Source: a virus (Duplodnaviria; Heunggongvirae; Uroviricota; Caudoviricetes). From it: a DNA stretch of 6,734 nucleotides. This document shows, one piece after another, positions 391-6,734 of the stretch; within the stretch, counting starts at the first letter, position 1, and each line of letters opens with the position of its first letter. A model generated the notes under the pieces. The model made no database searches. It saw nothing but the letters and a program-made list of their open reading frames with translations, and had not been told where the DNA came from. The stretch lies in IMG/VR virus record IMGVR_UViG_648276647_000003, positions 1 to 6,734 of that record; one strand, 5' to 3'. A program made the position numbers and the translations under genes.

Positions 391-2359
391 AGATTTCCTC
401 GTCTCGCTTGGCTTCAGTGTGGATGATGCAGGAGCGAAAAAGTTCGGTTCTGTCCTCGCCGGTACAACTGCAAATGTCATCAAAATGGGACTGGCCGTTG
501 AAGGAGCTGCGCTGTCCGTGGTGGCCTTCACGGCTAAGATCGCCTCCGGCCTGGATAATCTTTACTGGGCGTCACAGCGCACCGGCGCGACGGTCCAGGG
601 AATTCAGACTATTGGCTATGCGGTTTCGCAGGTTGGCGGTAGCGTGGACGCTGCGCGATCTTCTCTGGAAAGCCTCTCCCGGTTTATTCGTAACAATCCC
701 GGTGCAGAAGGCTTTCTGAATCGCCTGGGCGTACAGACCCGTGATGCCAGCGGTAACATGCGTGACATGGCCGCTATCTTTACGGGCGTTGGACAGAAAC
801 TCAGCAGCATGCCGTATTACCGGGCTAACCAGTATGCGCAGATGCTGGGCATTGACGAAAATACCCTTATGGCGATGCGCCGGGGTGTGGGTGGTTTCTC
901 CGGGCAGTACAGCGCAATGGCGAAAGCTATCGGCTTCAATGCTGACGAGGCGGCCAGAAGCTCCAACAAATTTATGACCTCCCTGCGTGAGTTTGGCGCG
1001 ATGGCAGGCATGGCCCGTGACAAAATCGGCTCTAATCTTGCGGGTGGACTTGCGGGTTCGTTGGACACCCTGCGCCGCCATATCCTGGACAACTTCCCGC
1101 GTATCGAGCAGACCCTGACGAAAGCCATAAAAGGCATTCTGGCGCTCGGGGATATTATCGGGCGGCTGTTCTTCAGACTGATTGAAGGAACATCAGGCCT
1201 CATCACCTGGTGGCAATCGCTGGATAAGCAAACGCGGGAGTTGATCTCGCTGTTTGGCGCACTGACGATTGCGCTGCGCATTCTGAACAGTACGTTCTGG
1301 ATGTCGCCGATTGGCCTCATTACCGCGCTGGCGGCGGGGATTGCCCTCCTGTGGGAGGACTATCAGACCTGGAAGGAAGGCGGCGACAGCCTGATTGACT
1401 GGGGCAAGTGGAAACCGGAGGTTGATGCCGCGCTGAAGATGGTTCGTGACCTTAAAACGACCGTTAACGACCTGGTGAAAGCGCTGGCGAAACTGCTCAA
1501 TATTGACCCCAAATCATGGTCCCTGAAGTGGGATTTCAGCAACTTCATCGACCAGATGGGCGAATTCAGCAAAATGCTGAACATGATCGCCGACCTACTC
1601 AACGCTATCAAAGATGGCCGCTGGGTTGATGCCGTCAGCATCGGCAAACAGATACTTAATCAGGGCAGCGAAAATCCGTCAGCGATGCCGATGGTTACAG
1701 ACAGCGCTAACAGTACTGCCGACTGGATTAAAGAGCACTGGGGATTCGATCCCCGCAGCGTGGGCCGGACGGTACGCGGCTGGTTTGGTGATGATGAGCC
1801 GGAACAATATGCACAGGCTACGAAACGAGGAGAACGGAATAACAATCCGGGAAACCTTAATTTTGCTGGTCAGGTAGGGGCTTCTCTTGAACGCCCGGGC
1901 GGGCGATTTGCCAGATTTGAAACTGCTTTTGATGGATTACGGGCTCTTGCTCGTCAGTTAATGCTGTACGCCGGACGGGGAATAAACAGTGTGGAGAAAA
2001 TTATCTCTACCTGGGCACCTGCGTCTGATAATAACAACACAACTGCGTATATCAGGGCTGTATCGCAACGACTGGGAGTGGATCCCCGGGCTGCCCTGAA
2101 TATGAGCGATCCGCAAACCATGTCAGCATTGATGAGCAGCATTATCCAGCATGAAAATGGAAGAAATATCTATTCTCGAGAGCTGATTAATAAGGCTGCC
2201 GTAGCGGGAATTAGTGGCAAAGTGACAGAGGTTAACCAGCAAAATACCTACCACATTTACGGTGGCGGAGATCCGCACGCTGTCGGTAATGAGGTTGCAC
2301 GTCGGCAACAGTCTGCAAATGCTCAGGTCATGCGAAGTAATCAGGTGAGGGTGGGTTAG
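371..2359 (+). CDS. Phage tail tape measure protein (662 aa)
   Basis: Long ORF immediately after the chaperone/frameshift pair, with RBS ggagagagg a few nt before the ATG. The N-terminal two thirds is Ala/Gly/Leu-rich with hydrophobic segments (e.g. LISLFGALTIALRILNSTFWMSPIGLITALAAGIALLW) typical of tape measure proteins; a distinct C-terminal domain follows. Size and position fit a contractile-tail tape measure. Confidence 0.85.
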   Translation: MNAETIKDFLVSLGFSVDDAGAKKFGSVLAGTTANVIKMGLAVEGAALSVVAFTAKIASGLDNLYWASQRTGATVQGIQTIGYAVSQVGGSVDAARSSLESLSRFIRNNPGAEGFLNRLGVQTRDASGNMRDMAAIFTGVGQKLSSMPYYRANQYAQMLGIDENTLMAMRRGVGGFSGQYSAMAKAIGFNADEAARSSNKFMTSLREFGAMAGMARDKIGSNLAGGLAGSLDTLRRHILDNFPRIEQTLTKAIKGILALGDIIGRLFFRLIEGTSGLITWWQSLDKQTRELISLFGALTIALRILNSTFWMSPIGLITALAAGIALLWEDYQTWKEGGDSLIDWGKWKPEVDAALKMVRDLKTTVNDLVKALAKLLNIDPKSWSLKWDFSNFIDQMGEFSKMLNMIADLLNAIKDGRWVDAVSIGKQILNQGSENPSAMPMVTDSANSTADWIKEHWGFDPRSVGRTVRGWFGDDEPEQYAQATKRGERNNNPGNLNFAGQVGASLERPGGRFARFETAFDGLRALARQLMLYAGRGINSVEKIISTWAPASDNNNTTAYIRAVSQRLGVDPRAALNMSDPQTMSALMSSIIQHENGRNIYSRELINKAAVAGISGKVTEVNQQNTYHIYGGGDPHAVGNEVARRQQSANAQVMRSNQVRVG

Positions 2360-2946
2360 TGGATATTCTCTCTACACTTTTTCATCAGCAGAGTAGAAAA
2401 ATAGGAATGATTGTTCCCAGTGTTGTTATTTCAGAGAAGCATACAGATATGCTTGAAATAACAGAGCATCCGGTAGAGGTCGGGGCCGCTGTCGCTGATC
2501 ATGCCTATAAAAAACCGTCAGAAGTGGTGATGGAGGTTGGTTTTGCCGGTGGCGGCGCATTGCTGGATTTTGCCAGTAACCTGACGGCTACCAGCCTGCT
2601 CGGCCTGAGTCCTCAGCAGACGTATCAGGAGCTACTGGGTCTGCAGGAAAGCCGTATCCCCTTCGATGTGGTAACCGGTAAACGACTGTACAGCAACATG
2701 TTGATCCGGGCGCTGGAAGTGACGACGGACAAGACAACCGAAAACGTCCTGTCCGCCGTCCTCACCCTGAGGGAGGTCCTTATCTCCCGGACACAGCAGA
2801 TTACCGTCGCGGATAAAACCAACATGAAGGAAGGGGCCAGCACGTCGGCGGTACAGAACAGCGGCAACAAAACCACAAAGCCTCCAGATACTTCACTGCT
2901 GAAAAGCATCACGGGTAACGTGGCGTCATTACTGGGAGGCGGATAA
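2359..2946 (+). CDS. Phage tail/baseplate-associated protein, function unassigned (occupies the position of Mu gp43-like proteins after the tape measure)
   Basis: 195-aa ORF whose GTG start overlaps the tape measure stop (TAGTG at 2357-2361), preceded by a gaggg RBS. An alternative ATG at 2407 would give a shorter product. Family assignment is by position only. Confidence 0.55.
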   Translation: MDILSTLFHQQSRKIGMIVPSVVISEKHTDMLEITEHPVEVGAAVADHAYKKPSEVVMEVGFAGGGALLDFASNLTATSLLGLSPQQTYQELLGLQESRIPFDVVTGKRLYSNMLIRALEVTTDKTTENVLSAVLTLREVLISRTQQITVADKTNMKEGASTSAVQNSGNKTTKPPDTSLLKSITGNVASLLGGG

Positions 2947-3248
2947 TGACAATTCAGGAAATTCCGCTGACAGCGGACAATCAGCAGTTCAGCATCGTCC
3001 TGGGGGGTGTCACCTGGCGGATTAGCATCATATGGCGCGATCTTTACTGGATTATGGACCTGCAGAACGACAGAGGGGAGCCGGTAATCTCCGGTATTCC
3101 TCTCGTCACTGGTGCTGACCTGCTGGCGCAGTACGCCTGTATGGGGCTTGGTTTTAAGCTGGTGGTGGTCTGTGATGACAACACACAGGATTACCCCACA
3201 AAAACTGACCTGGGCGGTCGCAGCCATTTACTGGTATCAACGGAGTAA
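2946..3248 (+). CDS. Small phage tail/baseplate-associated protein (100 aa), function unknown
   Basis: ATG overlaps the upstream stop (ATAATG at 2944-2948) and its own stop lies 2 nt before the next ATG, so it is tightly coupled within the structural operon. Confidence 0.55.
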   Translation: MTIQEIPLTADNQQFSIVLGGVTWRISIIWRDLYWIMDLQNDRGEPVISGIPLVTGADLLAQYACMGLGFKLVVVCDDNTQDYPTKTDLGGRSHLLVSTE

Positions 3249-3250
3249 GC

Positions 3251-4321
3251 ATGTCACAGAACTGGATGAGACATTTCGAGCTGCAGCTTGTGGACGGGAA
3301 CGGTCAGGGAATTGAGCTAAGTGATTTCAAAGTCACCTTTACGATCGACTGGTTCAACATCAGCAGCGCGTCCCGGGTAGGGACTATCAAAATTTATAAC
3401 CTCTCGGCAGATACTGTGAACCGAATTACCGGGCAGGAGTTTTCGAAAGTGCGTCTGATTGCCGGTTACGACGGTATCGCGCCGGAGGTGTCAGCAAGCG
3501 ACGTAGGGACCGTGCGGGAAGTTGACGCGGCGGACGTGGGCCAGAGAGATGGCCGCAACTACGGACTGATTTTCAGCGGTGAAATTCGCTACTCGGTCAC
3601 AGGAAAAGACAGTCCGGTTGATACCTACGTCCTGATTCAGGCAGCAGATACTGATCTGGCTTTTGCCACCAGTATAACCTCACAGACGCTGGCTGCCGGT
3701 TACACGGTCGCTGATGTGAACCGTGCGCTGATGAAAGACTTCGAAGCCAAAGGCGCGACCGAAGGCCTGACGCCTGAAATGCCTGCTACTGTATTCCCCC
3801 GGGGGCGGGTACTCTTTGGCATGACGCGGCATCTAATGGATAACGTAGCCGGACAATGTGGCGCAACATGGCAATTCGTGGACGGTCAGCGCCAGATGGT
3901 GGCGAATAACGAATATGTTCATGAAGCGATTGTGCTCAACAGCGCTACCGGGCTTATTGGCATGCCGCAGCAGACCATCGGCAACGGCGTAAACGTCCGC
4001 GCGCTTATTAATCCGAACATCCGGGTTAATGGGCTCATTCAACTGGATCAGGCTTCTATCTATAAAACAGCTTTACCGAATGACGATATTGCTAAAGCAG
4101 CGGGACGTTACTTTGACGAAACAATAGATGGCAACTCTAACGTTACCCTGCCCGTGTCCAAACAAATGACGGCCAGCATCGCAACTGATGGCGTTTATAT
4201 TGTGCGCGGGATTATGTACACTGGCGACACAAGGGGCCAGGCCTGGTACATGGATATGATGTGCGAAGCGCGCGGTGCGCAGGATATGCCATCCAGCACT
4301 GCTTTGCAGAGAGGATTATAG
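3251..4321 (+). CDS. Putative baseplate hub protein (Mu gp44 / P2 gpD / T4 gp27-like), 356 aa
   Basis: 356-aa ORF located between the tape-measure-proximal proteins and the central spike, which is the conserved hub position in Mu-like tail modules. The hub assignment is positional and by size, not a verified motif match. Confidence 0.55.
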   Translation: MSQNWMRHFELQLVDGNGQGIELSDFKVTFTIDWFNISSASRVGTIKIYNLSADTVNRITGQEFSKVRLIAGYDGIAPEVSASDVGTVREVDAADVGQRDGRNYGLIFSGEIRYSVTGKDSPVDTYVLIQAADTDLAFATSITSQTLAAGYTVADVNRALMKDFEAKGATEGLTPEMPATVFPRGRVLFGMTRHLMDNVAGQCGATWQFVDGQRQMVANNEYVHEAIVLNSATGLIGMPQQTIGNGVNVRALINPNIRVNGLIQLDQASIYKTALPNDDIAKAAGRYFDETIDGNSNVTLPVSKQMTASIATDGVYIVRGIMYTGDTRGQAWYMDMMCEARGAQDMPSSTALQRGL

Positions 4322-4323
4322 AA

Positions 4324-4668
4324 ATGAAACGATGGATATTTTCATTGCTGGCGTTAGTGTCTGTTGGTGTAAGTGCAAACACCATAACGATGCAATGCGG
4401 CAACTTTCGTATGGATGCGATCCCTGACTCATTATTTAAAATCAATGGCGAAACAGTAACGTCCCAAAAAGTAAAAATGTTGGGTAAAGACGGTACAGGC
4501 ATGCAGATCAAAATGGGGCTGATGCCTGCCAAAGATGGCCACAATTATGGGTTCGAGTATATCCATCGACCGGGCACCGAAACGCGTTTCCTGAACGTCC
4601 AGCTTCTGCAGAACAGCATGGACGCGCCTAGAATCATCGGGTCTTTCCCATGCAAAAAAGTTAATTAA
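4324..4668 (+). CDS. Small secreted/periplasmic protein, paralog A (114 aa precursor); cargo (moron) gene, function unknown
   Basis: ATG at 4324 is preceded by an agagagg RBS and starts 2 nt after the hub stop. N-terminus MKRWIFSLLALVSVGVSA-NTITMQC is a typical Sec signal peptide with an AXA-type cleavage site and no lipobox. Mature protein has Cys near its N-terminus (QCG) and near its C-terminus (FPCKK). Lower GC than flanking genes by eye. The track's longer 4261 start would overlap the hub gene and place the signal peptide internally. Confidence 0.7.
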   Translation: MKRWIFSLLALVSVGVSANTITMQCGNFRMDAIPDSLFKINGETVTSQKVKMLGKDGTGMQIKMGLMPAKDGHNYGFEYIHRPGTETRFLNVQLLQNSMDAPRIIGSFPCKKVN

Positions 4669-4680
4669 CAGGGGGGATTA

Positions 4681-5046
4681 ATGAAGCGCTTAGCTCTCTT
4701 ATCTCTTGTTTTTATGTCGTATAGCGTGCTTGCAGCGCCTGTTTTGCGCTTTAAGTGCGGTGACGATAAATTTGTAATGTATGTGAATGCCTCAATGAGT
4801 AAACAGGCAGTCATAATGAACGATCAGCTAACAGAAAATTCAGCCACTGACCAGTATCCGTACGGTGACTTGGGGGATTCGGTGGTCATCACATTTGATG
4901 TATGGGGGGCGAATGGTGGGATGCATAACCACTACACAACTGTTTTCCCTAACGATTCAAAAACTATTAAACAAATAGTTCAGATTTTAGACGCAGATGA
5001 TCGCCCCCGTGGTGATGCCATCTATAAGACCTGCACGAAAATGTAG
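4681..5046 (+). CDS. Small secreted/periplasmic protein, paralog B (121 aa precursor); cargo (moron) gene, function unknown
   Basis: RBS gggggga lies just upstream of the ATG at 4681. Signal peptide MKRLALLSLVFMSYSVLA-APVLRFKC. Mature protein has the same two-Cys layout as paralog A (KCG ... KTCTK) and a shared C-terminal block (VQIL...PR...C.K versus VQLL...PR...C.K in A). AT-rich by eye. Confidence 0.7.
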   Translation: MKRLALLSLVFMSYSVLAAPVLRFKCGDDKFVMYVNASMSKQAVIMNDQLTENSATDQYPYGDLGDSVVITFDVWGANGGMHNHYTTVFPNDSKTIKQIVQILDADDRPRGDAIYKTCTKM

Positions 5047-5071
5047 GAACCTTATCGCAGACACCATTTAA

Positions 5072-5093
5072 CCCGCCACCCGGCGGGTTTTTT
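5072..5093 (+). terminator. Rho-independent terminator: 6-bp GC stem cccgcc/ggcggg, 4-nt loop, T6 tract
   Basis: cccgcc(5072-5077) accc ggcggg(5082-5087) tttttt(5088-5093), beginning 26 nt after the paralog B stop codon. Confidence 0.6.
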
Positions 5094-5112
5094 GCTTTCT
5101 GGAGCCTACTAA

Positions 5113-5865
5113 ATGGCAGTATCTGACCAGACCCGCAGCGGCGACCTTGCCGAAACATTCAAATCTGAACGGGAAACAACAAAGAACCAGATCCGTGTCG
5201 CCTTGCCTGGCATTATTCAGTCATTCGATCCTGACGCGGTGACGGCGGTTGTGCAGCCAGCTATCCGTTCGGTTGAAAAGGATAACTACGGTAACCGCAT
5301 TACCAAAAATTACCCATTGCTGGTGGATGTGCCAGTGGTATTCCCGCGCGGCGGAGGCTGTACGTTGACTTTTCCGGTAAAAGCCGGGGATGAGTGTCTT
5401 GTCGTTTTTGCCGATCGTTGTATTGATTTCTGGTGGCAGAGTGGCGGGATACAGGAGCCAGTCGATGACAGAATGCATGATTTATCGGATGCGTTTTGTA
5501 TTGTCGGTCCCCAGTCGCAGGCAAGGAAGATTAGCGGTATTAATACCAGTGCCACACAGTTGCGTAGTGACGACGGCAGCACCTATTTTGAGCTTAATCC
5601 TGATACCAGGAAAATTAAAATTGTCGCTCCGGGTGGTCTTGATGTGGTTGCCCCTCTGGCTGATTTTTCTGAGAAAGTAACCATTCATGGCCTGTTAACC
5701 TGGATGGGTGGCATGGTGGGGTCTGTTGTTTCTGGTGTGGCTTCAAAAATCACTGGTGCTGTTGAGTTTTTGGGGAGCGTGAAGGCTAACGGCAAGCCAA
5801 TCGATGATACGCACACTCATGGCGGTGTTCAGCGCGGTGGAAGCAGTACCGACGGGGTAAACTGA
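5113..5865 (+). CDS. Baseplate central spike protein (P2 gpV / Mu gp45 / gp138-like), 250 aa
   Basis: RBS ggag lies 8 nt upstream of the ATG. The N-terminal OB-fold region (PLLVDVPVVFPRGGGCTLTFPVKAGDECLVVFADRCIDFWW...RMHDLSDAFCIVG) matches the hallmark pattern of gpV-type spikes. The Gly-rich C-terminus contains HTHGG, resembling the His-containing apex of spike proteins. Confidence 0.85.
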   Translation: MAVSDQTRSGDLAETFKSERETTKNQIRVALPGIIQSFDPDAVTAVVQPAIRSVEKDNYGNRITKNYPLLVDVPVVFPRGGGCTLTFPVKAGDECLVVFADRCIDFWWQSGGIQEPVDDRMHDLSDAFCIVGPQSQARKISGINTSATQLRSDDGSTYFELNPDTRKIKIVAPGGLDVVAPLADFSEKVTIHGLLTWMGGMVGSVVSGVASKITGAVEFLGSVKANGKPIDDTHTHGGVQRGGSSTDGVN

Positions 5866-6218
5866 TGCGATACAGACGTGAAGACGCCGATGGCGATTAC
5901 ACCTTTGGCAGCGGTGATGACACCTGGCTGATTAACTCACCGGAGGCCGTGGCGCAGGCGGTAAAAACGCGATTCGAATTGTGGTATGGGCAATGGTTTC
6001 TCGACACCACCGAGGGGACTCCGTGGATCCAGTCCGTACTCGGTAAGCAGAAGCCGGAAACCTACAACCTGGCGATCAGAAAACGCATTCTGGAAACGCA
6101 GGGCGTTAAATCAATCCTCTCTTTCAATACGACGGTGGATACCACGACCCGACGTGTCATGTTTTCCGCTGAAATCGACACTCTCTATGGAATAACGACT
6201 GTTACATCGGAGGCGTAA
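5865..6218 (+). CDS. Small baseplate wedge protein (Mu gp46 / P2 gpW / T4 gp25-like position), 117 aa
   Basis: ATG overlaps the spike stop (TGATG at 5863-5867). Size and position between spike and baseplate J fit the gp25-like wedge protein; a TRFELWYG segment loosely resembles the gpW motif. Family assignment is tentative. Confidence 0.6.
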   Translation: MRYRREDADGDYTFGSGDDTWLINSPEAVAQAVKTRFELWYGQWFLDTTEGTPWIQSVLGKQKPETYNLAIRKRILETQGVKSILSFNTTVDTTTRRVMFSAEIDTLYGITTVTSEA

Positions 6219-6712
6219 TGGCTCTGAACCTTGATTCTCTCGGTTTATCTGCAAAGGTAACCGCGGAGGGGATCAGTGCGCCTGATTATCAGACGATACT
6301 CAGCACCCTGATTAGCTATTTTCAGCAGATTTATGGCAGTGATGCCTACCTCGAACCGGACAGCAAAGACGGCCAGATGGTGGCTCTGATGGCGCTGGCG
6401 ATTCATGATGCCAATAATACTGCGATAACTGTCTACAACTGTTTTTCACCGGCAACCGGCTATGGGGCTGCACTGACCAGTAACGTGAAAATAAATGGTA
6501 TTTCACGTAAAGGCGCGACGAACTCTACGGTTGATTTGCTTCTTACAGGAACTGCCGGAACAACCATCATTAATGGCAGCGTGAAAGACAGTAATAATGT
6601 GATATGGCGTTTGCCTGCTTCAGTGGTGGTCGGCGTGGATGGTACAGTGATGGTGACCGCAACATGTTCCGTCAGTGGTGCAGTGGCGGCCGCTGGCTGG
6701 AACTATCACTGA
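6218..6712 (+). CDS. Baseplate J-like protein (Mu gp47 / P2 gpJ / T4 gp6-like), N-terminal 164 codons; apparently truncated by a 1-nt frameshift, possible pseudogene or sequencing error
   Basis: ATG overlaps the upstream stop (TAATG at 6216-6220), RBS ggagg. The ORF ends at TGA 6710-6712, but another frame is open from about 6660 to the window edge and reads LAGTITEINTPTRG, which fits the expected continuation of a baseplate J protein. Intact homologs are usually around 300-380 aa. Confidence 0.6.
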   Translation: MALNLDSLGLSAKVTAEGISAPDYQTILSTLISYFQQIYGSDAYLEPDSKDGQMVALMALAIHDANNTAITVYNCFSPATGYGAALTSNVKINGISRKGATNSTVDLLLTGTAGTTIINGSVKDSNNVIWRLPASVVVGVDGTVMVTATCSVSGAVAAAGWNYH

Positions 6713-6734
6713 AATTAATACGCCAACCCGTGGC

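Follow-up and report, generated by a model that had tools for sequence, protein, structure and literature searches.

A one-base frameshift in the baseplate J gene of an Escherichia coli M605 prophage scaffold: a probable consensus error 43 nt from the scaffold end

The stretch of prophage DNA analysed here (6734 bp, hereafter the window) ends within a gene for a baseplate J-like protein that appears to be interrupted, which raises the question of whether the interruption is carried by the prophage or was introduced into the record. According to the ORF list, the J frame occupied positions 6218–6712 of the plus strand and comprised 164 codons, its product ending in ...CSVSGAVAAAGWNYH* at the TGA codon 6710–6712, as had been stated in a preliminary description of the window. 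The frame containing position 6699 was open to position 6734 and read GTITEINTPTRG, i.e., ...RPLAGTITEINTPTRG. It had been taken for the continuation of J, and its translation indeed matched residues 159–172 of the intact protein. The features concerned are as follows:

5865–6218, plus strand: intact sheath-initiator (gp25-like) gene (PF10934 Sheath_initiator, PHROG 120)
6218–6712, plus strand: truncated baseplate J/gp47 ORF (ORF list, PF04865, PHROG 6)
6690–6691, plus strand: lesion, a C doubled to CC with respect to all relatives (GGCGG-CGCTGG changed to GGCGGCCGCTGG; alignment)
6693–6734, plus strand: continuation of J, LAGTITEINTPTRG, in the +1 frame with respect to the ORF and without a stop up to the scaffold end (translation; equal to residues 159–172 of intact J)
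6710–6712, plus strand: premature TGA resulting from the frameshift (ORF list)
6734: physical end of scaffold GL883938.1, 43 nt past the extra C, the rest of J lying beyond the record

The lesion was located by alignment with two intact relatives, namely, the prophage of FDAARGOS_144 (J of 399 aa) and phage vB_EcoM-606R2, on which nothing was found in the literature. The window contained one surplus base, a C at 6690/6691, which converts GGCGGCGCTGG into GGCGGCCGCTGG, and its flanks were identical to those of these relatives over 130 nt upstream and 43 nt downstream. The alignment thus upheld the earlier diagnosis of a one-base frameshift but moved its position, since the indel had been placed within ggct at 6695–6698 and the extra C lies about 5 nt upstream. 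The intact homolog reads ...SGAVAALAGTITEINTPTRGWVSV... across the junction, and removal of the extra C restored ...SGAVAALAGTITEINTPTRG, not the SGAVAAA(A/G)GTITE that had been proposed as the joined frame. Residues 1–158 of the window J were wild type and were followed by six out-of-frame residues (AGWNYH) before the stop. By its nature the change is one of run length, C → CC; the remark that the site is not at a homopolymer therefore holds in that there is no long run, but not in that run length is altered all the same. The last 870 nt of the window matched 346 complete E. coli genomes as well as several phages, and all full-length matches in these genomes and phages spanned 869 nt. Since the relatives are 1 nt shorter and one extra base was aligned, the window carries a true frameshift relative to its homologs. 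It should be noted that the extra C generates a NotI site, GCGGCCGC, at 6686–6693, a perfect 8-bp palindrome absent from all relatives, which is probably a coincidence.

The identification of the gene as baseplate J was sustained by profile comparison, in which the truncated product scored 29 bits against Pfam PF04865 (Baseplate_J, gathering cut-off 21.1) over profile positions 4–77 of 255, and the intact 399-aa homolog (L001) scored 57.3 bits over positions 4–252 of 255. The product also matched PHROG 6, the baseplate wedge subunit. The genes of the window follow the order of a contractile-tail module, i.e., chaperone, tape measure, Dit-like, plug, hub (3251–4321), two small cargo ORFs, spike (5113–5865), sheath initiator and J, the stop codon of the sheath-initiator gene overlapping the start codon of J (ATGA). 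In relatives, J is followed by a Phage_Wedge1/DUF2612 gene and then by a tail fibre gene. As a baseplate J/gp47 wedge gene it is an ordinary one, and the myovirus-type prophage to which it belongs is widespread in E. coli. The gene shares with the Baseplate J/gp47 family (PF04865; Mu gp47, P2 gpJ, T4 gp6) the Pfam match, PHROG 6, the order spike, sheath initiator, J, Wedge1/DUF2612 and tail fibre as found in its relatives, and an N-terminal part of 158 residues identical to that of intact members. It differs in that a stop at codon 164 of 399 results from one extra C, and the C-terminal 60% of the gene lies beyond the record, which ends at 6734.

In the relatives, J was found to be uninterrupted at the equivalent position. 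Of 107 related loci, 105 carried J as one ORF of 1200 nt, and 308 complete E. coli genomes covered it over its whole length; among these, the full-length matches inspected were 1199–1200 nt long, each annotated as a single J gene. The complete genome Z1322HEC0009 also carries a 1199-nt J. The closest solved relatives by sequence were 9zd7 gp88, 9ndy wedge protein 2, 7kh1 gp16 and 8env gp44, and of these, 9zd7 gp88, 7kh1 gp16 and 8env gp44 aligned through the lesion position as one chain. Natural termination of homologs at this point, which would have made the short frame a normal one, was checked, and the homologs read through. A continuous polypeptide of about 400 aa characterises 105 of the 107 related loci, the complete genomes and the solved structures, and the ORF of the window departs from this by one base, which probably reflects the record and not the biology. 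Only two of the 107 related loci had a disrupted J, L058 (at J nt 1110) and L100 (at J nt 847, 913 and 922). Their lesions were single-base deletions in short runs (G5 → G4, AAA → AA twice, and one more), so that such indels in database copies of J look technical.

The frame downstream of the stop is open to the window end, as would be expected if J were functionally expressed from two frames, either by programmed +1 ribosomal frameshifting or as a natural split into two genes. The same arrangement was found in none of the relatives: J was uninterrupted in the 105 loci mentioned above, a conserved two-frame arrangement occurred in 0 of 297 complete genomes, and homologs and solved wedge proteins cross the position as one chain. 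Inspection of the codons around the frame junction (GCG GCC GCT GGC TGG AAC TAT CAC TGA) revealed neither an X_XXY_YYZ heptamer nor, from 6690 to the stop, any known +1 motif. Because no relative shares the arrangement and a shift motif is lacking, both programmed recoding and a natural split were rejected, and the probability left to a functional two-frame J is practically negligible.

Meanwhile, a canonical programmed −1 signature was observed at the other end of the window, in the tail chaperone region (1–390), where the chaperone ORF, ending at 193, contains the heptamer A_AAT_TTT (139–145) in zero frame. The −1 frame was open from at least position 100 to the stop at 388–390 and overlapped the start of the tape measure gene at 371, and the heptamer was conserved in 48 of 48 related loci. 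An open second frame and such conservation are the traits of a genuine recoding site in this element. In public annotation, the region is represented only by a short separate ORF for a “DUF6889 family protein”. The J lesion resembles the programmed −1 frameshift of tail assembly chaperones (lambda G/GT type) in that two frames occur in a gene of the tail cluster, but it differs in the direction of the shift required (+1), in the lack of a slippery motif and in being conserved in no relative. Look-up of the hub protein led to contig ADIK01000035.1 (L123), which was 98.5% identical to the window over 1792–6734 and contained an intact J. This contig also carries an IS66-family transposase pair (5577–6967) between the tail chaperone and the DUF6889/tape measure genes, where the chaperone frameshift extension would be.

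In none of the collections searched did the extra-C allele occur a second time. In a megablast search of positions 6640–6734 against 5,426 complete E. coli genomes, the extra C was present in 0 of the 297 genomes holding this segment, the best identity of 98.9% corresponding to one gap. Exact scans for the 26-mer with the insertion across 185,579 species-representative genomes, IMG/VR and JGI metagenome contigs were negative, and the wild-type 25-mer was found in 118 viral contigs. At the protein level, the 164-aa product occurred on this one contig only (153 billion gene positions), and the frameshifted tail attached to four other common N-terminal alleles was absent from 15 billion proteins according to exact look-ups. 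The tape measure protein of the window was likewise unique to this contig (exact look-up). The repaired N-terminus of 172 aa was identical to that of 11 of the 106 intact relatives, i.e., J showed no drift of the kind that follows inactivation, so the event is either very recent or not real.

The closest collinear prophage, that of strain P4, was 97.2% identical to the window over a 6733-nt alignment. Relative to it, the extra C was the only indel that is not a multiple of three, the others being two in-frame 3-nt indels, both in the hub gene. The remaining ten genes of the contig were intact, all other ORFs were full length, and comparison with the closest relative revealed no further lesion within 6.7 kb of tail genes. 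Thus, the suggestion that the prophage is a defective or domesticated element found no independent support, the neighbouring genes being undamaged and the allele a singleton. No related strain shared the lesion; since the search yielded no prophage near-clonal to that of M605 (best whole-window identity 97.2%), this test of inheritance is a weak one.

The position of the lesion acquires its meaning from the origin of the window. An exact-protein look-up returned one contig of the same extent, so that the window corresponds to the entire 6734-bp scaffold GL883938.1 of assembly GCA_000176555.2, which leaves no downstream sequence by which it could be lengthened, and the truncated protein is EGI12692.1 (UniRef F4T8V4) of E. 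coli M605. The extra C is therefore only 43 nt from a contig end and falls in the last 0.7% of the scaffold. Strain M605 is a commensal B2 strain whose draft genome was produced by the Broad Institute (PMC4182557). The assembly is an early draft, dating from circa 2010. A literature search for the sequencing method of M605 returned only the commensal B2 and Broad Institute origin of the strain, and one on 454 contig-end errors returned nothing directly citable; the platform of the Broad project was presumably pyrosequencing. Run-length indel errors concentrate at low-coverage contig ends and are typical of pyrosequencing and other flow-based platforms. At the opposite end of the scaffold, base 1 is C (CCCCTG), where 42 of 43 relatives have T (TCCCTG) and one has C. 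As a second end error this base was uninformative, because one relative also has C and the base may be real.

It was further found that J is frequently broken in assemblies. The 90% cluster of the truncated product contained 328 members, most of them “partial” J fragments at contig ends, which indicates that J is a frequent assembly break. The locus of E. coli FJ_Ec_21 (L133, 2348–2552 against window 6560–6734) contained a mosaic J, whose 5′ part was about 75–80% identical to the window up to about position 6728 and which was nearly identical from 6729, so that the scaffold end at 6734 lies 5–6 nt past this mosaic boundary. A second J-like copy of the FJ_Ec_21 type in M605 would, speculatively, explain why the contig stops at 6734. 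Some phage matches to the J region were also partial, and the lesion site itself is located in the linker between two J regions that align separately to gp88. Six contigs of other assemblies had boundaries 0–3 nt from the insertion site: three of them (L126, L127 and L128) start at CTGG, GCTGG and CGCTGG, respectively, and three (L129, L130 and L131) end at ...GGCGGCG(C). These six probably represent about two independent samples or clones, and the few controls at neighbouring codons gave 0 of 4; the clustering may be due to chance, or the inter-domain linker of J may contain a mosaic junction. The 158-aa protein P0009, considered as a further boundary at codon 158, was rejected, since it is an internal fragment whose sequence continues across the site. 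In another contig (L081, IMGVR_UViG_2606217111_000006, 5575 bp), the 3′ part of J was observed at both ends in inverted orientation (J nt 410–1200 forward at 1–791 and J nt 1200–262 reversed at 4637–5575), which represents either two prophage copies joined tail to tail or a palindromic error of assembly.

A further, independent assembly was found through the Logan collection, in which contig 384 of SRR024152 (L124) encodes the same hub protein and is 100% identical to window positions 838–5373 (4536 nt), so that SRR024152 was presumably built from M605 reads, in which case the raw reads of the strain are public. This contig ends before J, its last base being that of the T4 run 5370–5373, which would fit flow-type read noise. 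No gene for the 164-aa product was recorded in SRR024152; this counts weakly against the insertion, as a contig break could by itself explain the absence. In a search for the adjoining SRR024152 contig, no spike fragment with a start at 5344 or 5371 was recorded, and J partials of 157, 158 and 172 aa as well as six C-terminal hybrids were either absent or derived from other samples. This route by partial products is a weak one, given that an 87-aa positive control from contig 384 was also missed.

The preliminary description had named an indel error and a genuine mutation as the two options, with a slight preference for the latter; both options stand, but the contig-end position and the singleton allele shift the balance towards error. 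In our estimation, the extra C is probably a consensus error made at the end of a draft contig and would be absent from the DNA of the strain. This reading is favoured by four circumstances taken together, namely, the position at the contig end, the singleton allele, the change from C to CC and the otherwise undamaged contig. It is supposed that read support would thin or turn mixed at contig ends, that the scaffold end here probably coincides with a repeat boundary shared with a second J-like gene, and that a one-base run-length overcall, C → CC, could then survive into the consensus. The case resembles known run-length indel errors of draft assemblies in that a single base is added to a run, 43 nt from a scaffold end and in a single record, and comparable run-length deletions were found in related database sequences of J; it differs in that the run here is only 1 to 2 bases long. 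It speaks against an error that C → CC is not the long homopolymer in which pyrosequencing errors peak. Moreover, proximity to a contig end would also be likely for a real variant if M605 had two J copies differing in this C.

A genuine, recent and strain-specific +1 insertion that inactivates J and leaves the M605 prophage defective for tailed particles is possible, although we doubt it. The base is, after all, present in the deposited consensus and is not part of a long homopolymer, and real frameshifts in the structural genes of E. coli prophages are common, inactivation of such genes being frequent. The premature stop is located within the Pfam domain (position 77 of 255) and in the inter-region linker defined by gp88, so that an insertion, if real, would mean a true loss of function. 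Frameshift pseudogenes of cryptic and defective E. coli prophages are comparable, a 1-nt indel in a structural gene abolishing the tail if it is real; they differ in that they usually contain several lesions, deletions or IS insertions common to related strains. Against a real insertion, the allele was a singleton in all the collections searched, no second lesion was present in 6.7 kb of tail genes, the repaired translation was identical to intact alleles, the source record is an early draft assembly, and a place in the last 0.7% of the scaffold is improbable for a random mutation unless the mutation is tied to the cause of the contig break. A very small probability is assigned to an origin of the extra C at a mosaic boundary in J, in either of two variants: an assembly junction at which reads from a second, partly identical J copy were merged, or a real but imprecise recombination of two prophages, shifted by one base. 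The contig boundaries 0–3 nt from the site (L126–L131), its location in the inter-domain linker and the mosaic J nearby (FJ_Ec_21, partial phage matches) agree with such a junction, but the six contigs amount to about two independent samples, the few controls gave 0 of 4, and in a collection of this size chance boundaries are expected at most codons. In addition, the second J copy in M605 is hypothetical, and both flanks were identical to those of ordinary relatives, over 43 nt downstream and no less than 130 nt upstream, so that no change of parentage is visible at the insertion site. It is similarly far-fetched that a real extra C points to a hotspot of recurrent rearrangement or mutation in the J linker, at the place of the contig boundaries mentioned above; recombination between co-resident prophages would then repeatedly break or re-join the baseplate wedge genes of this prophage family there.

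Under the favoured reading of a consensus error, EGI12692.1/UniRef F4T8V4, the 164-aa “putative bacteriophage protein”, would be an artefactual truncation arising at the end of a draft contig, and the frameshift would give no ground for counting the M605 prophage as defective. The wedge proteins P2 gpJ, Mu gp47 and T4 gp6 are required for baseplate assembly. By analogy with them, a real insertion would leave an essential wedge protein its N-terminal domain (residues 1–158) but cost it the C-terminal 241 of its 399 residues, including most of the Baseplate_J domain, and would be expected to render the prophage tail-defective; in that case a common E. coli prophage would have been inactivated in one strain, which is routine. 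Neither outcome is novel or of much biological weight. The locus does illustrate that a window may end where a contig ends, which alters the weighting of any lesion nearby.

Apart from J, two small ORFs at 4324–4668 and 4681–5046 were observed to fill a variable slot between the hub and spike genes. They encode products of 114 aa (PHROG 3443, unknown function) and 121 aa (no family), respectively, both with signal-peptide-like N-termini (MKRWIFSLLALVSVGVSA... and MKRLALLSLVFMSYSVLAAP...). In relatives, the same slot was occupied by other genes, for instance those encoding DUF2335, DUF4282 or a thioredoxin-domain protein, and the two ORFs look like moron or cargo genes within the tail module.
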